A DNA stretch of 64,000 nt from Minisyncoccota bacterium (GTDB lineage Bacteria > Patescibacteriota > Minisyncoccia > Phycocordibacterales > XYD1-FULL-46-19), in the NCBI GenBank assembly GCA_041663165.1, contig JBAZRF010000001.1:736-64735 (forward strand), given 5' to 3'. A model generated the notes under the pieces. That model was not told the origin of the DNA and ran no database searches. It was given only the letters and a program-made list of their open reading frames with translations. Shown here in pieces: positions 3,488 through 53,491 of this stretch. The position numbers and the translations under genes were made by a program. Position 1 is the first letter of the stretch, and each line of letters opens with the position of its first letter.

Positions 3488-3580
3488 GCTCCAATTATAG
3501 CAAAAATGATGATTCTGGTCACTTGACAAATTACTGATATAAGAGTATAATCAAGAGCAGGATTGGAAAGGAGATCTAGC

Positions 3581-3697
3581 ATGAACAAAATTGGCGCCTT
3601 CCTAACTGGCCTTGTGGCTGGCTACGGTAAGCAGGTGTCTCGCGCTTGGCAAGATGTTATTGCCGCGGCGATTGCCGTGGCGCGAGCTATCCACTAG
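3581..3697 (+). CDS. Small hypothetical protein (38 aa, hydrophobic/Ala-rich)
   Basis: ATG preceded by the strong RBS GGAAAGGAG in a fmt-def intergenic gap. It falls below the ORF-track size cutoff. Confidence 0.3.
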   Translation: MNKIGAFLTGLVAGYGKQVSRAWQDVIAAAIAVARAIH

Positions 3698-3757
3698 ACC
3701 GACTCCTCGTTTTTACAGGGATATCCCCTGGGGTCCGAGTTTGGGATTCCGGGGGGT

Positions 3758-4276
3758 TTATTTTTTAACTTCCGGTTTATATTCTTTTAACTCTTTTGTT
3801 TTTTCGATAAACAGAACGCCATTTAAGTGGTCGGTCTCGTGCTGAAAGATTTGGGCCAAGAGGCCGGTGCCAGAGCGAGTAAATTTTTTGCCATCAATAT
3901 CATAAGCAGTGACGGTGGCTTTGACTGAACGCCTCACTTCGCCATAAAGCCAGCGCACCGATAAGCAACCCTCCTCCATGGTCATTTTTTCTTTAGATAA
4001 TTTAGTTAATTCAGGATTAATAAAAACCAAATCCGGTTTTATTTTCTTTGCTTCAAAATCTTCCTCGTTTGTAAAAATTCGGCCCGAGACAACGAAAATT
4101 CGTAACGGCAGGCCGATTTGCGGCGCCGCTAGTGCCACCCCGTCGTCTTCTTTAGCCAGCGCTTCGCTCATATCGGTGATAATTTTTTTCAGTTTGGGCG
4201 TACCAAAAAGCTCCTTACCCACCTCCTCAGCGGGCTGATGAAGCACCTCATTTTCTTTTTGCACAATCTTGACCAT
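3758..4276 (-). CDS. def: Peptide deformylase
   Basis: Motifs EGCLS and QHETDHLNG. Classic def-fmt arrangement. Confidence 0.92.
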   Translation of the reverse strand: MVKIVQKENEVLHQPAEEVGKELFGTPKLKKIITDMSEALAKEDDGVALAAPQIGLPLRIFVVSGRIFTNEEDFEAKKIKPDLVFINPELTKLSKEKMTMEEGCLSVRWLYGEVRRSVKATVTAYDIDGKKFTRSGTGLLAQIFQHETDHLNGVLFIEKTKELKEYKPEVKK

Positions 4277-37819: not shown

Positions 37820-38254
37820 ATGATGTCAGAAACATTAAAAAAATTCCGTTACCCAGAATCGCTAGTCAAAGAATATGAGAATTGGTTATTATTATGTCGG
37901 CCCAAACAAAAAACCTTAGGGTCTCTTGTCTTGTTGTGCAAAGATGAGATAACTAGTTTCTCGGCGATTTCTGATAAAAGTTTTACTGAATTATCTCAAA
38001 TAATTCGCGAAGTAGAAGGTAAACTAAGAAAAGAATTCAATTACGACAAAATAAATTATCAGATGTGGATGATGGCCGATCCGGAAGTTCATTTTCATAT
38101 TTTCCCCCGATATTCCGTGGATAAGGAATTATTCGGTTTCGTCTTTAAAGATACCGCTTGGCCCGGCACGCTTGGAGACAATGACCTTAATCAAATAGGT
38201 GAGGAGGTCTATTTAAAATTGGCCAGTAAACTAAAAGAATTATTTAACAAATAA
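37820..38254 (+). CDS. HIT-like (histidine triad superfamily) protein with variant HxH motif
   Basis: C-terminal EVHFHIFPRY resembles the HIT motif H-phi-H-phi-H with the third His replaced. The overall length is HIT-like. Confidence 0.5.
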   Translation: MMSETLKKFRYPESLVKEYENWLLLCRPKQKTLGSLVLLCKDEITSFSAISDKSFTELSQIIREVEGKLRKEFNYDKINYQMWMMADPEVHFHIFPRYSVDKELFGFVFKDTAWPGTLGDNDLNQIGEEVYLKLASKLKELFNK

Positions 38255-38317
38255 TAATGCAGATGAGAATGACCGGTCCTTATGGTGGGGGACCGGCCGT
38301 GGGAATTATTCGGAGGA

Positions 38318-38734
38318 CTAATTGTCTGAGGGCCGAAAGGTTCTGGCCCGAGGTCTTGCTTCGGGATCGACCCCTGGAGATGTTGACTGGGTAGTAATTA
38401 CTCCCATGGCGCTCGCTCCGCCCTCGTAGCCTTCGTGAAGCGCTTTCGAGATCGTCGGGGGCAGATCTTTGTCGTACAGGACGGATACCTGAATCTGTCG
38501 ACGAAGCATCTCTCTCTCACTATCCGATATCCAGCCACTATCGGCAAGCCTCTCAACTTCTCTTAAGGCTTCCGGTTTGCTGAGTACTAAGATGGGCTTT
38601 CTGCCTTGGACAAAGATTTGCCCCATGGCGTTTCCCTGCACCTCAACCTTTGACCCAAGTTCTCCGAGACCCGTTTTGATGGCCGCTATTAGCTCTTCTC
38701 GGGGAGGGGTTACCAAAAGACATGGCTTTTTCAC
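38318..38734 (-). CDS. Hypothetical protein, GC-rich foreign-looking gene (GTG start)
   Basis: GC-rich ORF with RBS GAGGAG and upstream promoter-like TTTACA-17-TATTAT. No recognisable domain. Confidence 0.5.
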   Translation of the reverse strand: MKKPCLLVTPPREELIAAIKTGLGELGSKVEVQGNAMGQIFVQGRKPILVLSKPEALREVERLADSGWISDSEREMLRRQIQVSVLYDKDLPPTISKALHEGYEGGASAMGVITTQSTSPGVDPEARPRARTFRPSDN

Positions 38735-38820
38735 TTCTCAATCTCTCCTCAGTTCGGGTGAACGTTACCTGCCTCCCATAATAACATCTAATTGATATAT
38801 TGTAAATGCTGATATCTATT

Positions 38821-38849
38821 CTTGACGGTTAACGCTTTTTTGTGTATGG
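38821..38849 (+). promoter_or_regulatory. sigma70-like promoter TTGACG-17-TATGGT on the + strand, divergent from the 38318-38734 gene
   Basis: Read directly: ttcTTGACGgttaacgcttttttgtgTATGGTg. Confidence 0.5.
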
Positions 38850-38852
38850 TGT

Positions 38853-38946
38853 TGTATATCCCCGCGAATGCACTCGCTGTGTGGTGAGTGTGGCATCACA
38901 ACCGGTTTAGGGGGTGAGCCTCTCGGCTTCCCCCTTACCTTATTTT
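38853..38946 (+). ncRNA. Candidate ~90-nt leader or small RNA ending in an intrinsic terminator (GGGGGTGAGCC...GGCTTCCCCC + U-tract)
   Basis: A promoter lies upstream. A GC-rich hairpin is followed by TTATTTTTT. The next CDS start is about 120 nt further downstream. Confidence 0.35.
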
Positions 38947-38947
38947 T
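38905..38947 (+). terminator. Rho-independent terminator-like hairpin + T-run
   Basis: AGGGGGTGAGCCTCTCGGCTTCCCCCTTACCTTATTTTTT. Confidence 0.5.
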
Positions 38948-39066
38948 TAAAGATGGCGTTTGTCAGAACTTACTAGCGATAGTGGGTTTTTTCTTTGCCA
39001 AGAGGTCATTTTTGTGTTAATGATAAACTGGAAAGTTGGCCTGAGCCTTACGGCAGAAAGGAGATT

Positions 39067-39426
39067 ATGACTATGCCAACGGCGAGAGTGCGATATGTCA
39101 ATACAGGAATTGGTCACGATACGTTGACCAAATTGAGAGACCATCTTCGCCGGTTGATCGCTCAAATTCTGACCGAGGTGGAAACGGCTCGGCCTGTAAG
39201 CGAAGACGGGGTTCGTTTGTTCTTCAAGAAAAACGAACCCTTCGATGTAATGCCCGATGATATCTTCATTGTGGTTGAAATCGGGATTACAGAAAGGCGC
39301 CTTCAGGCCAAAGACGCCATCGCTCGAAAGATACACCGAGGACTCGTGGAGGTGCTGGACGAAGGGCTGAAGTTCGAAGTCCAGGTCCGTCCTGTCGAGC
39401 GTGGTCGAGCCAAGAGCGGGGGGTGA
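39067..39426 (+). CDS. Hypothetical protein, GC-rich foreign-looking gene
   Basis: Strong RBS GAAAGGAGATT before ATGACTATG. The longer ORF-track start (38995) lacks an RBS. No recognisable domain. Confidence 0.5.
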   Translation: MTMPTARVRYVNTGIGHDTLTKLRDHLRRLIAQILTEVETARPVSEDGVRLFFKKNEPFDVMPDDIFIVVEIGITERRLQAKDAIARKIHRGLVEVLDEGLKFEVQVRPVERGRAKSGG

Positions 39427-39504
39427 CGCGAGGGGTAAGACCCTCCTCCGAAGATTGAATCGGTTCACTGGCAACAGTGGGCCTTTTCTTTTATAATTGA
39501 ACTG

Positions 39505-40566
39505 ATGAATACTGTTATTTTTATCGTCGTTGGGTTAGTGGTTGGTTTTGCTTTGGCCGTCATTGCCGTTAAGTTTTTTGGGTCAAAAAAAGAGGAGAAT
39601 GGGACGGATAATTCAGCCATGATGTTATTGCAAAATCAGATTGAGAATTTGACCAAAACGATTGATAGCCGTTTGCACGAAACTAATAAGCAATCGGCCG
39701 AGAGTGTGCGTGAGCAATTTAGCGAATTTGCCCGACTGTCGCGCGAAGTAACCGAGAAGTTGGTAAGGTTAGAAGAGACAAATAAACAGGTTATTAATTT
39801 TACCGACCAGCTCCAATCGCTCCAAGATATTTTAAAGAATCCCAAACAGCGAGGGATCTTGGGCGAATATTATCTTGAAACTTTATTAAAAAATGTCCTC
39901 CCGCCCGGCTCGTATCAAATGCAATATCCTTTTCCTGATGGCACGATTGTTGACGCCGTGGTGTTTGTGAAAGATAAAATTATTCCTATCGACTCCAAAT
40001 TTTCGCTCGAAAATTATAATCGAATTGTGGAAGAAAAAAGTCCGGCCGAAAAAGAAAAACTCGAAAAGATTTTTGTTAATGACTTAAAAAATCGTATTAG
40101 CGAAACGGCCAAATATGTTCAGCCTGATCGGGGAACGATGGAATTTGCCTTTATGTTCATCCCTCACGAGGCCATTTATTATGACCTAATTATCAATAAA
40201 ATTGGGGCGCTAAAAGACGAAAATACCGAAAACTTAATCCAGCGGGCGGCCTCAAAATACCACGTTATTATCGTTTCGCCGACCTCCTTCTTGGCCTATC
40301 TCCAGACCGTCCTACAGGGCCTAAAAGCCCTCCAGATTGAAGAATCAGCTAAGGAGATACGACAGAGGGTTGAAGAACTAGGCAAGCATATCGGGGCTTA
40401 TGAGAGCTATATGGCCAAGCTAGGGGGTGCCTTGGGGACCACCGTTAGCCACTATAATTTGGCCTACAAGGAGCTTAAAAAGGTGGATAAGGATGTACTA
40501 CGGGTAACTGGCGTCTCGGCCGGATTTGAGACCCAAACACTCGATAAACCCAATTTGGAGGACTAA
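39505..40566 (+). CDS. rmuC: DNA recombination protein RmuC
   Basis: N-terminal TM, coiled coils and conserved RmuC blocks (RGILGEYYLETLL; FMFIPHEAIYY; VIIVSPTSFLAYLQTV). Confidence 0.82.
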   Translation: MNTVIFIVVGLVVGFALAVIAVKFFGSKKEENGTDNSAMMLLQNQIENLTKTIDSRLHETNKQSAESVREQFSEFARLSREVTEKLVRLEETNKQVINFTDQLQSLQDILKNPKQRGILGEYYLETLLKNVLPPGSYQMQYPFPDGTIVDAVVFVKDKIIPIDSKFSLENYNRIVEEKSPAEKEKLEKIFVNDLKNRISETAKYVQPDRGTMEFAFMFIPHEAIYYDLIINKIGALKDENTENLIQRAASKYHVIIVSPTSFLAYLQTVLQGLKALQIEESAKEIRQRVEELGKHIGAYESYMAKLGGALGTTVSHYNLAYKELKKVDKDVLRVTGVSAGFETQTLDKPNLED

Positions 40567-40622
40567 AAACCAAAGCGTCCCGGCACTAAACGATGCGCGG
40601 GACGCGAGAACACATATGAGGG

Positions 40623-40907
40623 TTAAGGGTTGGCAATCGGGGCGAGGACCCTATCTTCAAGCTGCCGAATGATGGCGTCTGGGTCAGTTCCCATAAGCCC
40701 TTCCCGAAGAGAAGAGAGAAACTGGGCAGCTAGGCAACCCTTGGCGTGTTGGAGATATCCTCCCCAACGTCCAGGGATCTCGGCCTGCTGGTCAATCTCT
40801 ACTCCCATTACCACGGCAACTTTTCTAAGGTCGCCACTTGTCAGAGCGTTCTTAAGATCTCTTCTCCCCTCCGGACTTATTCGTCCGGCCACAATCTTTT
40901 CGTCCAT
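40623..40907 (-). CDS. Hypothetical protein, GC-rich foreign-looking gene
   Basis: Start set at MDEKIVAGR with RBS AAAGGAG. A consensus promoter lies upstream. No recognisable domain. Confidence 0.45.
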   Translation of the reverse strand: MDEKIVAGRISPEGRRDLKNALTSGDLRKVAVVMGVEIDQQAEIPGRWGGYLQHAKGCLAAQFLSSLREGLMGTDPDAIIRQLEDRVLAPIANP

Positions 40908-40929
40908 AAGGACTCCTTTCCCCGAGGAC

Positions 40930-40975
40930 CCCCTCGGAACACCTACTTGACATAATAGCATTTTAATTATAAAAA
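40930..40975 (-). promoter_or_regulatory. Near-consensus sigma70 promoter (TTGACT-17-TATTAT) for the 40623-40907 gene
   Basis: Reverse complement reads TTGACTttttataattaaaatgcTATTAT. Confidence 0.5.
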
Positions 40976-40995
40976 GTCAAGCATAAATTTGTTTT

Positions 40996-41020
40996 ATTAA
41001 AAAGCCGAAGCCGCGGGATT
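40996..41020 (-). terminator. Intrinsic terminator hairpin (AGCCGCGG-GATTGAA-CCGCGGCT) + U-tract on the minus strand, downstream of the 41054-41572 gene
   Basis: Perfect 8-bp stem. The minus-strand read continues CTTCGGCTTTTTAATAAAAC. Confidence 0.6.
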
Positions 41021-41053
41021 GAACCGCGGCTGGGGGTCAAACAAATTGTCGGA

Positions 41054-41572
41054 CTAGAAGAGGTATCCATCTGGTGGTTCTTCTCCGTCGGATCCGTCGT
41101 CGCGCCGGGGATCAGGTCGGGCGAGTTCTCCCTCGGGTGGCTGTCCCAATGGCCATTTCCCCGAACTTTCGCTGACCGAAGACCTGCTGTCTCCATCTTG
41201 CTCTCCGGACGATTCTTCTGACGGGAAACAGTCCGGTCGTCTCGGCGGAGCTTCGTCTACCGGAGCCCTTCCCGTGATCCGGTCAAAGACTCTGGCTTGG
41301 AGTTTGGCGATCAAGGATTTGAACCCTTTGTCGTCGAAGTCTCCCTGACGCACTGTTTCCTCGAGAATTGCTCCAATTGTGCCATCGATCTCACGATCTT
41401 TGGTTTGATCGAAACGATTTCCTCTCGTCTGGAGATAGGCAGAACCATATTGACTCAGGATCGTTGTTCTTAGTGCCTCGAGAGACATCGCTGGTCTCCC
41501 TGGATGGCCCTTGGCCATCCACACCTCCCAGGCCCTTCTTATTTCCCCAGTGTAAGGGTCGATCTTGGCCAT
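41054..41572 (-). CDS. Hypothetical protein with acidic, disordered C-terminal tail; GC-rich foreign-looking gene
   Basis: RBS AAGGAAGGA. The C-terminus is rich in D/E/S/P/G. No recognisable domain. Confidence 0.5.
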   Translation of the reverse strand: MAKIDPYTGEIRRAWEVWMAKGHPGRPAMSLEALRTTILSQYGSAYLQTRGNRFDQTKDREIDGTIGAILEETVRQGDFDDKGFKSLIAKLQARVFDRITGRAPVDEAPPRRPDCFPSEESSGEQDGDSRSSVSESSGKWPLGQPPEGELARPDPRRDDGSDGEEPPDGYLF

Positions 41573-41697
41573 TTGGCACCATCCTTCCTTTTCGCTCTGG
41601 CGAGCGCTCTGCGTTCAGTTCCACCCTTAACTTTAAATGAAAAAGAAAAAACGAGCAATCTTGCCATTAAACGGCTTTTGTGTATAATATAGTGGTT

Positions 41698-42006
41698 ATG
41701 TTCGCCATTATCGAAACGGGAGGTAAGCAGTACAAAGTCGCCGCGGGCGACTCTTTAAAGGTAGAAAAATTGCCCAAGACAGACAAGGGCGAAGTTATTT
41801 TTGATAAAGTTTTACTCGTCGCTGATGGCGAAAAAGTTCAGGTTGGCGATCCTTATCTTAAAGGGGCAACCGTTACCGCTAAGTTTGAAGAAGATGGCCG
41901 AGCTAAAAAAATTGTGGTTATCAAGTACAAAGCCAAATCGCGCTATCGCATTAAGACTGGCCATCGCCAGCCTTTTACCAAAGTCAAAATCGAAAAAATC
42001 GCCTAA
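41698..42006 (+). CDS. rplU: 50S ribosomal protein L21
   Basis: [14 protein letters not shown]... is the canonical L21 N-terminus. The start is moved to the ATG at 41698. Confidence 0.9.
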
Positions 42007-50601: not shown

Positions 50602-50875
50602 CCGCCACTACCTCAACGGTTGATTTTGTTTTGACCAAACCAGCAAAACTCAATTTACGTTTGGAGCCAAATTTAACTACACCCGGGACACTGGCGAAAA
50701 TAGTGTGGTCCTTGCCGAGGCGAGTATTTTTGCCAGCCATGATTTTCGTCCCGCGCTGGCGCACAATAATACTGCCCGCTTTAGCCGTTTGACCATCAGC
50801 CAACTTTGTTCCTAGATATTTAGGATTAGAATCACGTAGGTTTTTAGCAGTACCCCCTGCCTTACGATGTGCCAT
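50594..50875 (-). CDS. rpmA: 50S ribosomal protein L27
   Basis: [16 protein letters not shown]...IIVRQRGTK. Its 3' end overlaps rplI convergently by 8 nt. Confidence 0.9.
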
Positions 50876-50895
50876 ATTGGTATAATATTAACGAC

Positions 50896-51084
50896 ATGAG
50901 TATAAAGGAAATGACAGAAAAAGTAAAGTTTTATTCGTCTTGGTGGCGAGCTCGCGAGAAGGAATTATTTGTTGCTCTACTGGTTGTTTTGGTTGCCCTG
51001 TTATCGTTCGGCCTTGGCCGTTTATCAAAAATTGAAGGTTGCCAACAGCCGGTTCAGATTGAGAATGCTTTACAGACGCAGTAA
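50896..51084 (+). CDS. Small hypothetical membrane protein
   Basis: A TATAAT element lies at about 50881-50889. One TM helix. The start is moved to MSIKEM. Confidence 0.35.
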   Translation: MSIKEMTEKVKFYSSWWRAREKELFVALLVVLVALLSFGLGRLSKIEGCQQPVQIENALQTQ

Positions 51085-51152
51085 CGCCCCGGATCATACC
51101 GATCGATCCGAGGCGCCGTTGATGGGGAAGGAATATACGGGCGTTGTCGTTG

Positions 51153-51665
51153 CTAGTCCCAAACCAGCTCGGAGTATTCGAGCATGATCTGGTCGAGGCG
51201 TTCGGCCGTGAACTTGCCGGCGTCAACCTCTTCCTGGGTGACAATACCACACTTGACCATGTCGTTGATGATGGCCAAGGTTACTGCTGGACAGTTCTTG
51301 CTACGAGCGGCGTTGGTCACTCGCGACCAGAGTGTCTTCCCGCGGAAGTTTAGGCGAGACCATTCCCACCAATCCGTGTCTCTGGGGTCGCCAGCTAGGT
51401 TGGAGGTCCAGACGAAGTGCCACTCCAGATACTCTGGGTTGAAGTAGAAAGTTCGTTCGCCTAGAACTAGTGGCCAGACAAGTAGTCCGCCGTCCCAGCA
51501 TGGGCCGGCTAACTGATCGCCCTCGGGCATTTCCCAGTACCAGGCGGGGACGTCCAACCCTCGGATCCAATAGCACCCCTCAAAGGGGTTTCCGTCGGCT
51601 TGAACGGTTTGACAAACTGCAACCGACAACAACACGAGAACAAAGAACGCATACGACGACTTCAT
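51153..51665 (-). CDS. Hypothetical secreted Trp-rich protein, GC-rich foreign-looking gene
   Basis: Signal peptide MKSSYAFFVLVLLSVAVCQTVQA. 13 Trp. No recognisable domain. Confidence 0.5.
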   Translation of the reverse strand: MKSSYAFFVLVLLSVAVCQTVQADGNPFEGCYWIRGLDVPAWYWEMPEGDQLAGPCWDGGLLVWPLVLGERTFYFNPEYLEWHFVWTSNLAGDPRDTDWWEWSRLNFRGKTLWSRVTNAARSKNCPAVTLAIINDMVKCGIVTQEEVDAGKFTAERLDQIMLEYSELVWD

Positions 51666-51782
51666 GGGCAAATCCTTTCGCGTGGCGCCCTTTATTGGGC
51701 TGTGGGCGCCGGTAGTTCATCCGTGAAAAATTATAGGACAAAAATAAGATAAAAGCAAGTAATAGAATTATTATGAAAAAGA

Positions 51783-52075
51783 CAATTGCTCCCGGCGGTT
51801 TACCCTAACCGGGAGCAATTAGCCAAATGAATCCGTTTGAGATCAGGCACGACAGAGGAAGTGCCTTTGCCTTACACACCGCGGCTTGAAGCCCTTGACA
51901 GATGCGACAATCGAGCTGCCCTTTTCCCCGATATTCGATCTTCCTTCCGGGGTGGGGGATTTGCTCGACGTACTCTTTGTTTCTGCTGGGGGACTCCCAA
52001 GTCTTCGGAAGTGCATAGTTCTTTCTCCTGATTCGGAGTGGCCACAACGGTCACTCATCCTTCCATAAAAATCTT
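51783..52075 (-). ncRNA. Candidate GC-rich non-coding transcript (promoter TTGACT-17-TTAAGAT at ~52075-52110; 12-bp perfect IR terminator at 51784-51820)
   Basis: Only overlapping unconserved ORFs occur on both strands. A promoter-like element and a hairpin plus U-rich tract are on the minus strand. Confidence 0.25.
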
Positions 52076-52134
52076 AACATCGCAGTTGCCATGAAGTCAA
52101 CACATTGTCAACGGGGGATATTTAAAAAGCTGGC

Positions 52135-52143
52135 TGTGGATAA
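52135..52143 (-). promoter_or_regulatory. Perfect DnaA-box consensus (TTATCCACA on the minus strand)
   Basis: The plus strand reads TGTGGATAA, immediately upstream of the iteron-like repeats. Confidence 0.4.
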
Positions 52144-52152
52144 CTACTATAT

Positions 52153-52274
52153 ATGTCGCACAACATAGATTTTGCGACATAGCGCTAGAGCTAATCTAGC
52201 GCTAATGTTGCAAAATCTAATCTTGGCGCGACGTGCTTCCCTATCATGTCGCGCAAGATATTTTGCGGCATAGC
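52153..52274. repeat. Iteron-like array: three copies (direct, inverted, direct) of a ~30-34-bp element with core TAGATTTTGCGACATAGCGCT, plus a 9-bp palindrome AGCGCTAGA/TCTAGCGCT
   Basis: R1 52153-52186, inverted copy 52198-52234, R2 52246-52274. Aligned by eye. Confidence 0.6.
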
Positions 52275-52418
52275 TTTAATTTAATTATTTTATTTAAAAT
52301 ATTTTTCTCGCTTCTCCTAAACTCCGTCACTAATTTTACTAGTCCTTACCCCTAACATTTACTACCAAAAAACCGAAGGATTTAACCCTCCGGTTTTTTG
52401 GTTTTTTGCGTTGATCGA

Positions 52419-52928
52419 TTAGACAGACTTGCCAGTATCCTTACCCCAACAGGGCTTGCTCCAATTCCAATGACGGTTGCCTTCTTTCTTCATTAACCAC
52501 ATGGCGTACTCAATATTGTCGTTGGTCTTATGAATATCGAAGCCCAGAGCCTGACTTTGGCTAAGGTGGTACTTCTCATTGATTTGAAAGATGCCAACAT
52601 CTAGCGGATTTTTATCTCCGCGCATGGCTTTGCCATTTTCATCGTATTGACGAAAGGTGCTCTCGCAATTAGCGATCCGTAGAGCGGTATCGGCATGAAG
52701 ACCGTACTTGGCGCTCGTTTCGATGATTTGATCATAAACAGCGGCGCTGGCGGTAGTTGTTGGGCGCTCAATTGAATAAGTCTTCTCGATAACCGGTTGA
52801 TTGTTATCAAACCTGCTAGCAAGTAAGGGGTTAAGAGCCAAAGCTGGTCCCGTTGTTGAGCTCGCCGTAATGATGAGGCTTGCTAAGCCTATTTGTAGGG
52901 TTGAATAAATAAGCCAATTGAAAACCAC
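52419..52928 (-). CDS. Secreted lysozyme-like / transglycosylase-like domain protein
   Basis: N-terminal hydrophobic anchor. ...IANCEST...GDKNPLDVGIFQINEKYH resembles the catalytic Glu region of lysozyme-like (SLT/Rpf-type) folds. Confidence 0.5.
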   Translation of the reverse strand: MVFNWLIYSTLQIGLASLIITASSTTGPALALNPLLASRFDNNQPVIEKTYSIERPTTTASAAVYDQIIETSAKYGLHADTALRIANCESTFRQYDENGKAMRGDKNPLDVGIFQINEKYHLSQSQALGFDIHKTNDNIEYAMWLMKKEGNRHWNWSKPCWGKDTGKSV

Positions 52929-53191
52929 CTATCGCTTAAGGGCCACAACGGCCAAGCGGTAAATAGTTTAATAAAAACGAGCCTTTTTCTTAATTTCGAC
53001 GATGCCAGCCTTACGGCCGGTTTATCCTACCCAACTAATGCTATTGGTGTAAGCTAACTCTTGACAATAGTAGGATATATGTAGTCTAGCATAAGAGGGC
53101 TTAAAAGTCAACCCAAAAGGGGAGTTTCTACTCCCCTTTTGACTAAAAAACCCTTATTTTATAACGTTATTTTAGAATTAAGGTTTTCTGC

Positions 53192-53482
53192 CTATTTACT
53201 TAAAAATGGTATTTTTAATCCCGAGAGCCAATTGGGCAGACCTTGGCCTTTAAATATCGTATTCCAAGCCTGGCCAATCGGCCCGGCGAGGTATTCTTGA
53301 TACAAATCGGCCAACCAATCCCAGGCCCTAAGGACTATTTGCCAAACGTAGCCAAAATTGGCCCGCCCGGTGTCACTCTCAGCAATCTTCTGCAGATTGA
53401 TTCCCAGATAGCTTAAGATGATAATGGCCACAATTAGTAAAATTATTAATTTTACTAAACCCGATTGAGAGTTGTTGTTCAT
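53192..53482 (-). CDS. Small hypothetical membrane protein
   Basis: One N-terminal TM helix. 96 aa. Confidence 0.4.
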   Translation of the reverse strand: MNNNSQSGLVKLIILLIVAIIILSYLGINLQKIAESDTGRANFGYVWQIVLRAWDWLADLYQEYLAGPIGQAWNTIFKGQGLPNWLSGLKIPFLSK

Positions 53483-53491
53483 ATGCTTATA

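Follow-up and report, generated by a model that had tools for sequence, protein, structure and literature searches.

Stand-alone trans-acting small RNAs (sRNAs) are recognized by an orphan promoter that is followed by a Rho-independent terminator. In attenuators and riboswitch platforms, among them the T-box, PyrR and LicT/SacY-type leaders, the promoter, the leader, the intrinsic terminator and the gene follow one another in this order. Type III toxin-antitoxin systems of the ToxIN kind place a short non-coding RNA and a terminator directly 5' of a small gene. For CPR/Patescibacteria, searches of the literature gave no publication that deals with sRNAs or intrinsic terminators.

The DNA studied here is a window of 64 kb from an uncultured Candidatus Paceibacterota (Vogelbacteria-like) CPR bacterium. 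The 338-nt gap between two divergent hypothetical genes, h138 (− strand) and h119 (+ strand), holds a candidate RNA unit. A preliminary description of this DNA had pointed out a promoter-like site, then some 90 nt of structured RNA that end in an intrinsic terminator, and a co-oriented gene downstream; this layout is real. Our preferred but tentative reading, to which we assign a probability of roughly 0.4, is that of a stand-alone, lineage-specific small RNA on a recently acquired island of ORFan genes.

The terminator T1 and the promoter-like site P1

The intrinsic terminator T1 occupies positions 38904-38948 of the + strand. Its stem is built from GGU..AGGGGG.GAGCC and GGCUUCCCCCU.ACC around a UCUC loop (38904-38939) and is followed by the U-tract UUAUUUUUU (38940-48), which corresponds to the T-run TTATTTTTT in the DNA (38940-38948). 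The GC-rich hairpin said to close the stretch of about 90 nt is present as GGGGGTGAGCC/GGCTTCCCCC at 38910-38934, and its sequence is unique in the window. The preliminary description named this hairpin together with the U-tract. Both elements are there, but they are not adjacent, as five bases (TTACC) lie between the GC stem and the U-tract; for this reason, a simple terminator scan missed T1. Folding adds the pairs GGU/ACC (38904-06 with 38937-39) to the stem, so that the U-tract directly abuts the T1 helix. The free energy of the hairpin is −21.7 kcal/mol, with pair probabilities of 0.87-1.0. The − strand has no U-tract, and T1 is specific to the + strand because no A-tract is found 5' of it.

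The window was scanned for hairpins that end at most 3 nt from a run of 9 positions of which 7 or more are T. Seven sites have a ΔG of −20 kcal/mol or lower, compared to 0.17 ± 0.55 in locally dinucleotide-shuffled sequence; sites of the quality of T1 are about 40-fold enriched over shuffles. Each of the other six sites, one of which belongs to a 38-aa gene unit at 3523-3766, is located 3' of a co-oriented ORF, and T1 alone has none upstream. Statistically, T1 is far beyond chance and is a genuine intrinsic terminator, at which termination is predicted.

The nearest upstream gene on the + strand, HIT, ends at 38254. T1 is unlikely to serve as the terminator of the YbaK-HIT operon, since a separate GC hairpin (38272-38299) lies 3' of HIT and about 690 nt with the antisense gene h138 are in between. 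The hairpin at 38272-38299 has 9 bp, is GC-rich (GACCGGUCC...GGACCGGCC) and is situated between the convergent genes HIT and h138. Its U-rich tail is weak and confined to the − strand. Probably, this hairpin is a terminator common to HIT and h138.

The promoter-like site P1 (38822-38850, + strand) consists of a −35 hexamer TTGACG (38822-27), a 17-nt spacer and a −10 hexamer TATGGT (38845-50), in agreement with the preliminary description. P1 scores 9/12, the minimum accepted by the promoter scan, and has no extended −10 element. By expectation, sites that match as well as P1 turn up about once in 1.7 kb of each strand (7.2 per 6 kb on both strands), which corresponds to a chance probability of about 0.1 within the roughly 135 usable positions. 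On its own, the P1 match is weak, near-chance evidence and adds about ten-fold likelihood. The start of transcription would be near 38857.

The chance-level score of P1 suits a rival reading, possible though doubtful, in which the unit has no dedicated RNA function. T1, perhaps together with a second hairpin T2 described below, would then be a real terminator that came with the island. It may have been orphaned from a former gene, or it may shield h119 from stray transcription that originates at the divergent promoters. P1, the hairpin H1 and the alternative pairing described below would be coincidences. It speaks against this reading that P1 is placed exactly where it is needed.

Fold of the candidate RNA, alternative pairing and downstream signals

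The candidate RNA (38857-38948, about 92 nt) folds on the + strand with −35.7 kcal/mol (z = −3.2). The ensemble is tight, with an MFE frequency of 0.12 and a centroid almost equal to the MFE structure. The − strand of the same 92 nt reaches z = −2.3 and has a diffuse ensemble. In the 5' part, the hairpin H1 (38870-38891, + strand) is formed by GCACUCGCU-GUGU-GGUGAGUGU and comprises 9 bp, including three G-U pairs, with pair probabilities of 0.78-0.93. Its base can be extended to 38864-38894. All three non-Watson-Crick pairs of H1 are G-U on the + strand and C-A mismatches on the − strand, and in H1, T1 and T2 taken together every non-Watson-Crick pair is G-U on the + strand. An RNA without dedicated function accounts poorly for the strand-specific G-U pairs of H1 and for the low z-score with its well-defined ensemble; on the other hand, neither H1 nor the alternative pairing is more than moderately unusual by itself.

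The candidate RNA contains no ORF with a Shine-Dalgarno (SD) sequence. The sole ORF there (38868-39020, 50 aa) lacks an SD, has a coding score of −0.01 and crosses both terminators, and was rejected as a leader peptide on these grounds.

According to the preferred reading of a stand-alone sRNA, RNA polymerase would start at P1 near 38857 and make about 92 nt from the + strand. The predicted RNA would consist of a free C-rich 5' tail (UAUCCCCGCGAAU), the stable 9-bp hairpin H1, a single-stranded linker of 12 nt and T1, and most transcripts would end at 38940-48. As in other sRNAs, a target mRNA may be bound by base pairing with the C-rich, unpaired 5' tail or with the linker. The analysis shows T1, the structured segment of about 50 nt that precedes it and the plausibly placed P1, and the ~92-nt transcript itself is inferred. 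A duplex-folding target scan of 62 translation-initiation regions gave no outlier.

The linker has a second potential partner. GGC-A-UCAC (38892-99) can pair with GUGAGCC (38914-20), the inner 5' arm of T1, and the resulting antiterminator-like hairpin (38892-38920, + strand) and T1 are mutually exclusive. An alternative pairing of this type had been suggested as a point to check in the preliminary description, and it was indeed found. As long as the growing RNA lacks the 3' arm of T1, this hairpin is its MFE structure and gains −14.1 kcal/mol. This gain is equalled by 2-4% of shuffled upstream sequences (shuffle mean −9) and refers to a single sequence. In the same measure, T1 has z = −2.1, and seven of eight other strong terminator-like hairpins range from −0.2 to +1.4. 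One of these eight controls, located inside a gene, has z = −1.68. Additionally, the extended base of H1 and the antiterminator-like hairpin compete for G38892-C38894. Thus, one can draw a scheme with three states, namely anti-antiterminator, antiterminator and terminator.

These observations bear on the reading of the unit as a terminator-based 5' leader, or attenuator, of the ORFan gene h119, which we consider possible though doubtful. The linker at 38892-99 would first pair with the 5' arm of T1 and form the antiterminator hairpin. Read-through to 39073 would be set by whether the extended base of H1 (38864-65 and 38869 with 38892-94), possibly held by a protein or ligand, releases the arm for T1. 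The alternative hairpin gives modest support to such an attenuator and fits it more naturally than a stand-alone sRNA. The mutually exclusive, co-transcriptional nature of this hairpin, its rarity among shuffled sequences, the seven of eight other strong hairpins without such pairing and the competition with the H1 base all point in this direction, as does the common orientation of the unit and the adjoining h119 on the + strand. The support is modest, however: the result is a single test with p of about 0.03, and the G-rich arm pairs easily, as the shuffle mean indicates. In stability, the alternative hairpin falls short of T1 by 8.5 kcal/mol. Furthermore, the search for a sensing element in the leader yielded neither an Rfam aptamer match nor a leader ORF with an SD, and homologous leaders that would permit a covariation test are lacking. 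A more specific version, in which a protein- or ligand-controlled attenuator of an undescribed class on a mobile island gates h119, possibly under the control of h138, appears improbable; in it, H1 with its extended base would sense the signal, the hairpin 38892-38920 would be the antiterminator and T1 would terminate transcription.

The region between T1 and h119 contains further signals. The terminator-like hairpin T2 (38967-38996, + strand) is formed by AACUUACUA-GCGA-UAGUGGGUU (38967-38988), followed by UUUUCUUU, with a ΔG of about −9 to −11 kcal/mol. There are 80 real sites of this energy compared to 55 expected in shuffles, and individually T2 is at chance level. The promoter-like site P2 (38995-39024, + strand; TTGCCA, 18 nt, AATGAT) scores 9/12, which again is chance-level evidence, and could be the own promoter of h119. 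For an attenuator, the position of T2 between T1 and h119, with no evident antiterminator, and the distance of 111 nt from the U-tract of T1 to the SD of h119 are unfavorable, whereas the poor −10 element of P2 (AATGAT) is favorable, as it leaves h119 with a weak candidate promoter.

The stand-alone RNA is ranked first: the succession of two terminator-like hairpins, together with P2 and an SD that h119 has for itself, suggests that transcription is meant to stop before h119. It is supported by the strength of T1, the orphan position of T1 and the suitably placed P1, and also by the fold of the + strand, the absence of an SD-bearing ORF, the 338-nt gap and the presence of T2 and P2. Against it stand the near-chance score of P1, the lack of conservation, of a paralogue and of an Rfam family, and the individually chance-level T2 and P2. 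The uninformative target scan and the leader-like position directly upstream of a co-oriented gene likewise count against it.

Behind h119, a further terminator, T3 (39462-39493, + strand), is formed by GGUUCACUG-GCAA-CAGUGGGCC and followed by UUUUCUUUUA. T2 and T3 bracket h119 at a distance of 495 nt and have 20 of 25 bases in common. All eight stem differences between them retain pairing, and three are double compensatory changes. The likeness is not statistically compelling once the dependence between the arms is counted. The pair could be the trace of a duplication or an insertion scar, or merely two similar terminators.

The ORFan island and the search for relatives

The unit is part of a strain-specific island of 1.25 kb (38256-39504), which contains h138, P1, H1, T1, T2, P2, h119 and T3 and has a GC content of 0.50 compared to 0.447 in the window. 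The island, H1, T2 and P2 go beyond what the preliminary description had recorded. The adjoining gene, RmuC (39505-40566), encodes a protein 85-88% identical to those of MAGs of the Vogelbacteria-like Paceibacterota group. DNA or protein similarity to the island was sought in the RmuC loci of 80 related GTDB genomes and was present in none of them. In these relatives, the genes 5' of RmuC are unrelated ones, and the spacers measure about 40 nt. The only further copies found are a Logan contig (SRR18595301), identical to the window over 2492 bp, and a JGI contig (3300014208), which over 2367 bp differs by a single base inside RmuC and is identical in the RNA unit. Conservation of the hairpin and the U-tract cannot be assessed, since the whole 1.25-kb segment is absent in relatives and the other copies are identical. 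Judged by its ORFan genes, its GC content and its absence from relatives, the island looks foreign and is apparently young and recently acquired.

This character of the island is also in line with the reading that denies the unit a dedicated RNA function: an orphaned or insulating terminator may have arrived on a foreign-looking, apparently young segment with ORFans and deviating GC content, and the lack of conservation, paralogue and family agrees with it. The genome is compact, however, with a median intergenic gap in the window of 43 nt compared to 338 nt at the unit. An inert spacer of this length would be unusual, even if a young insertion could keep one.

The divergent ORFan gene h138 (38318-38734, − strand) has a GTG start, an SD GAGGAG at 38750-38745 and a marginal coding score of 0.11. 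It is called in the JGI and NCBI annotations and is missing from the gene calls of the Logan contig. A protein search with h138 matched only itself, and its AF2 model (pLDDT 52) is too poor for a structure search. The promoter of h138 (38778-38806, − strand) consists of TTTACA, 17 nt and TATTAT with an extended TG and scores 10/12. Its −35 hexamer is 15 nt away from that of P1, back to back. Between these two promoters lie two copies of the hexamer TGATAT (38793-98 and 38810-15) at a distance of 17 nt. They could form an operator, or they could have arisen by chance, the DNA being AT-rich.

The downstream ORFan gene h119 (39059-39426, + strand) includes an SD AGGAG at 39059-63, has a stop codon ending at 39426 and reaches a coding score of 0.20. 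The preliminary description had placed the next start codon a further 120 nt downstream, which is correct: the candidate starts are 119-125 nt beyond the T-run, namely ATG 39067, 3 nt after the SD, and ATG 39073 (MPTARV...), 9 nt from the SD. ATG 39073, which gives 117 aa, is the likely start, favored by the SD spacing. The four annotations differ in the start they assign, with a length of 97 aa at NCBI (MFA6253675.1), 117 and 143 aa at JGI and 119 aa in Logan. At NCBI, the ORFs on either side of the RNA unit are WC640_00215 and WC640_00220, from a MAG labelled Candidatus Paceibacterota bacterium.

Members of the h119 protein clusters are merely alternative start-codon calls of the same contig. 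A word-indexed search of 5.8 billion proteins returned no homologue, and a full HMMER pass over 1.84 billion representatives likewise yielded none; the one marginal extra match, P0003, is a repetitive, probably spurious protein and was rejected. The PADLOC, Pfam, NCBIfam and PHROG models gave no match to h119. Its AF2 model (pLDDT 66) shows, with low confidence, a generic ferredoxin-like β-α-β-β-α-β fold, for which Foldseek found no informative match. A relationship to IS200/RAYT proteins was rejected, as the Foldseek matches are weak (TM of about 0.3) and an HUH motif is absent.

A second island (40570-41673) with a GC content of 0.53 and two − strand ORFs is located on the other side of RmuC and is also absent in the 80 relatives. 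In relatives, rplU directly follows RmuC, and no more than about 35 nt separate the two genes in L002 and other close relatives. The two islands flanking RmuC comprise four ORFan ORFs (h138, h119, h112 and h172). Each of these has promoter-like signals, and three of the four have terminator-like signals. A protein search with h172 matched only itself. Elsewhere in the window, the region 50602-53491 has several long gaps (551, 747 and 563 nt) in which all ORFs are short and many begin with GTG or TTG. Terminator-like hairpins, strong or bidirectional, are found there at about 51785 (− strand) and at 52372/52397. Rfam gave no match in this region at gathering score.

Searches for relatives of the RNA itself covered known families as well as exact patterns. 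At gathering score, Rfam 15 returned no family match near the candidate RNA when run on the whole window. At E ≤ 10, the regions 38700-39110 and 38200-41750 gave spurious short matches alone, three of four on the opposite strand. The covariance scan named in the preliminary description therefore provides no family even at this permissive threshold, and H1, with its 9 bp and its GUGU loop, is the only candidate for a sensor. Of the proposed riboswitch/attenuator leader or sRNA, the terminator is solid and pairing of the antiterminator type exists; a riboswitch of a known class finds no support. A tRNA/tmRNA scan found none, and according to TRF the region 38200-41800 is free of tandem repeats. 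Searched with a covariance model of the RNA, the window and 0.9 Mb of the relatives' loci yielded the RNA itself alone and no paralogue. Exact-pattern scans of viral contigs and phage blastn produced nothing, and an exact-pattern metagenome scan returned the JGI contig, identical at the RNA unit, and no other.

Comparison with known systems

Taken as a whole, the unit is a singleton of an ordinary kind and, as far as its sequence features go, a plausible sRNA or leader. If real, it would be a new lineage-specific example of a promoter-to-terminator sRNA gene or of a terminator-based leader. A validated sRNA or attenuator in CPR bacteria would be a useful first example, and validation would imply that control at the RNA level can travel with small accessory islands. 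At present, the practical value of the unit is that of a candidate for metatranscriptome inspection.

Two toxin-antitoxin types were considered and rejected. With type III systems, the unit shares a short non-coding RNA and a terminator directly 5' of a small gene on an accessory island. Unlike in those systems, there are no tandem repeats (TRF), and h119 matches no ToxN, AbiE, other PADLOC or Pfam model, so that a toxin homologue is missing. A type I system was rejected as well, since there is no SD-bearing toxin ORF and the sole ORF of 50 aa has a coding score of −0.01.

The order of promoter, leader, intrinsic terminator and gene is shared with the T-box, PyrR and LicT/SacY-type leaders, and so are a predicted alternative hairpin in which the 5' arm of the terminator takes part and a competing third helix, here the extended base of H1. 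In contrast to these leaders, the unit has no recognizable aptamer, RAT, specifier or leader peptide, and the candidate sensor is a 9-bp hairpin. Moreover, T2 and more than 110 nt intervene between T1 and the SD, and no Rfam family matches.

Stand-alone trans-acting sRNAs found by the orphan promoter and Rho-independent terminator criterion resemble the unit in their promoter (here the promoter-like site P1), in the length of about 92 nt, in a 5' stem-loop and in a single-stranded stretch. The strong terminator, the long U-tract, the non-coding nature and the unusually long intergenic region are further common traits. The unit differs from them in that it shows no conservation and belongs to no known family, is positioned directly upstream of a co-oriented gene, comes from a CPR host and is known from sequence alone.

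The window itself offers one more object for comparison, a mini transcription unit at 3523-3766. It has a perfect TTGACA-17-TATAAT promoter, an SD, a 38-aa ORF (3582-3698; MNKIGAFLTGLVAGYGK...) and a terminator with a ΔG of −22.3 kcal/mol. Judging from its sequence, the 38-aa product is probably a small membrane peptide. The two units differ in their promoters, with 12/12 matches in the mini unit compared to 9/12 in P1, and in the SD and the clear 38-aa ORF of the mini unit, which contrast with the lack of an SD-bearing ORF in the candidate RNA. They are alike in size, in the sigma-70-type promoter, in the short transcript that each would give and in the strong hairpin with a U-tract as terminator. 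The window also shows that this Paceibacterota genome relies on sigma-70-type promoters of canonical form and on strong intrinsic terminators, which is useful for annotation.
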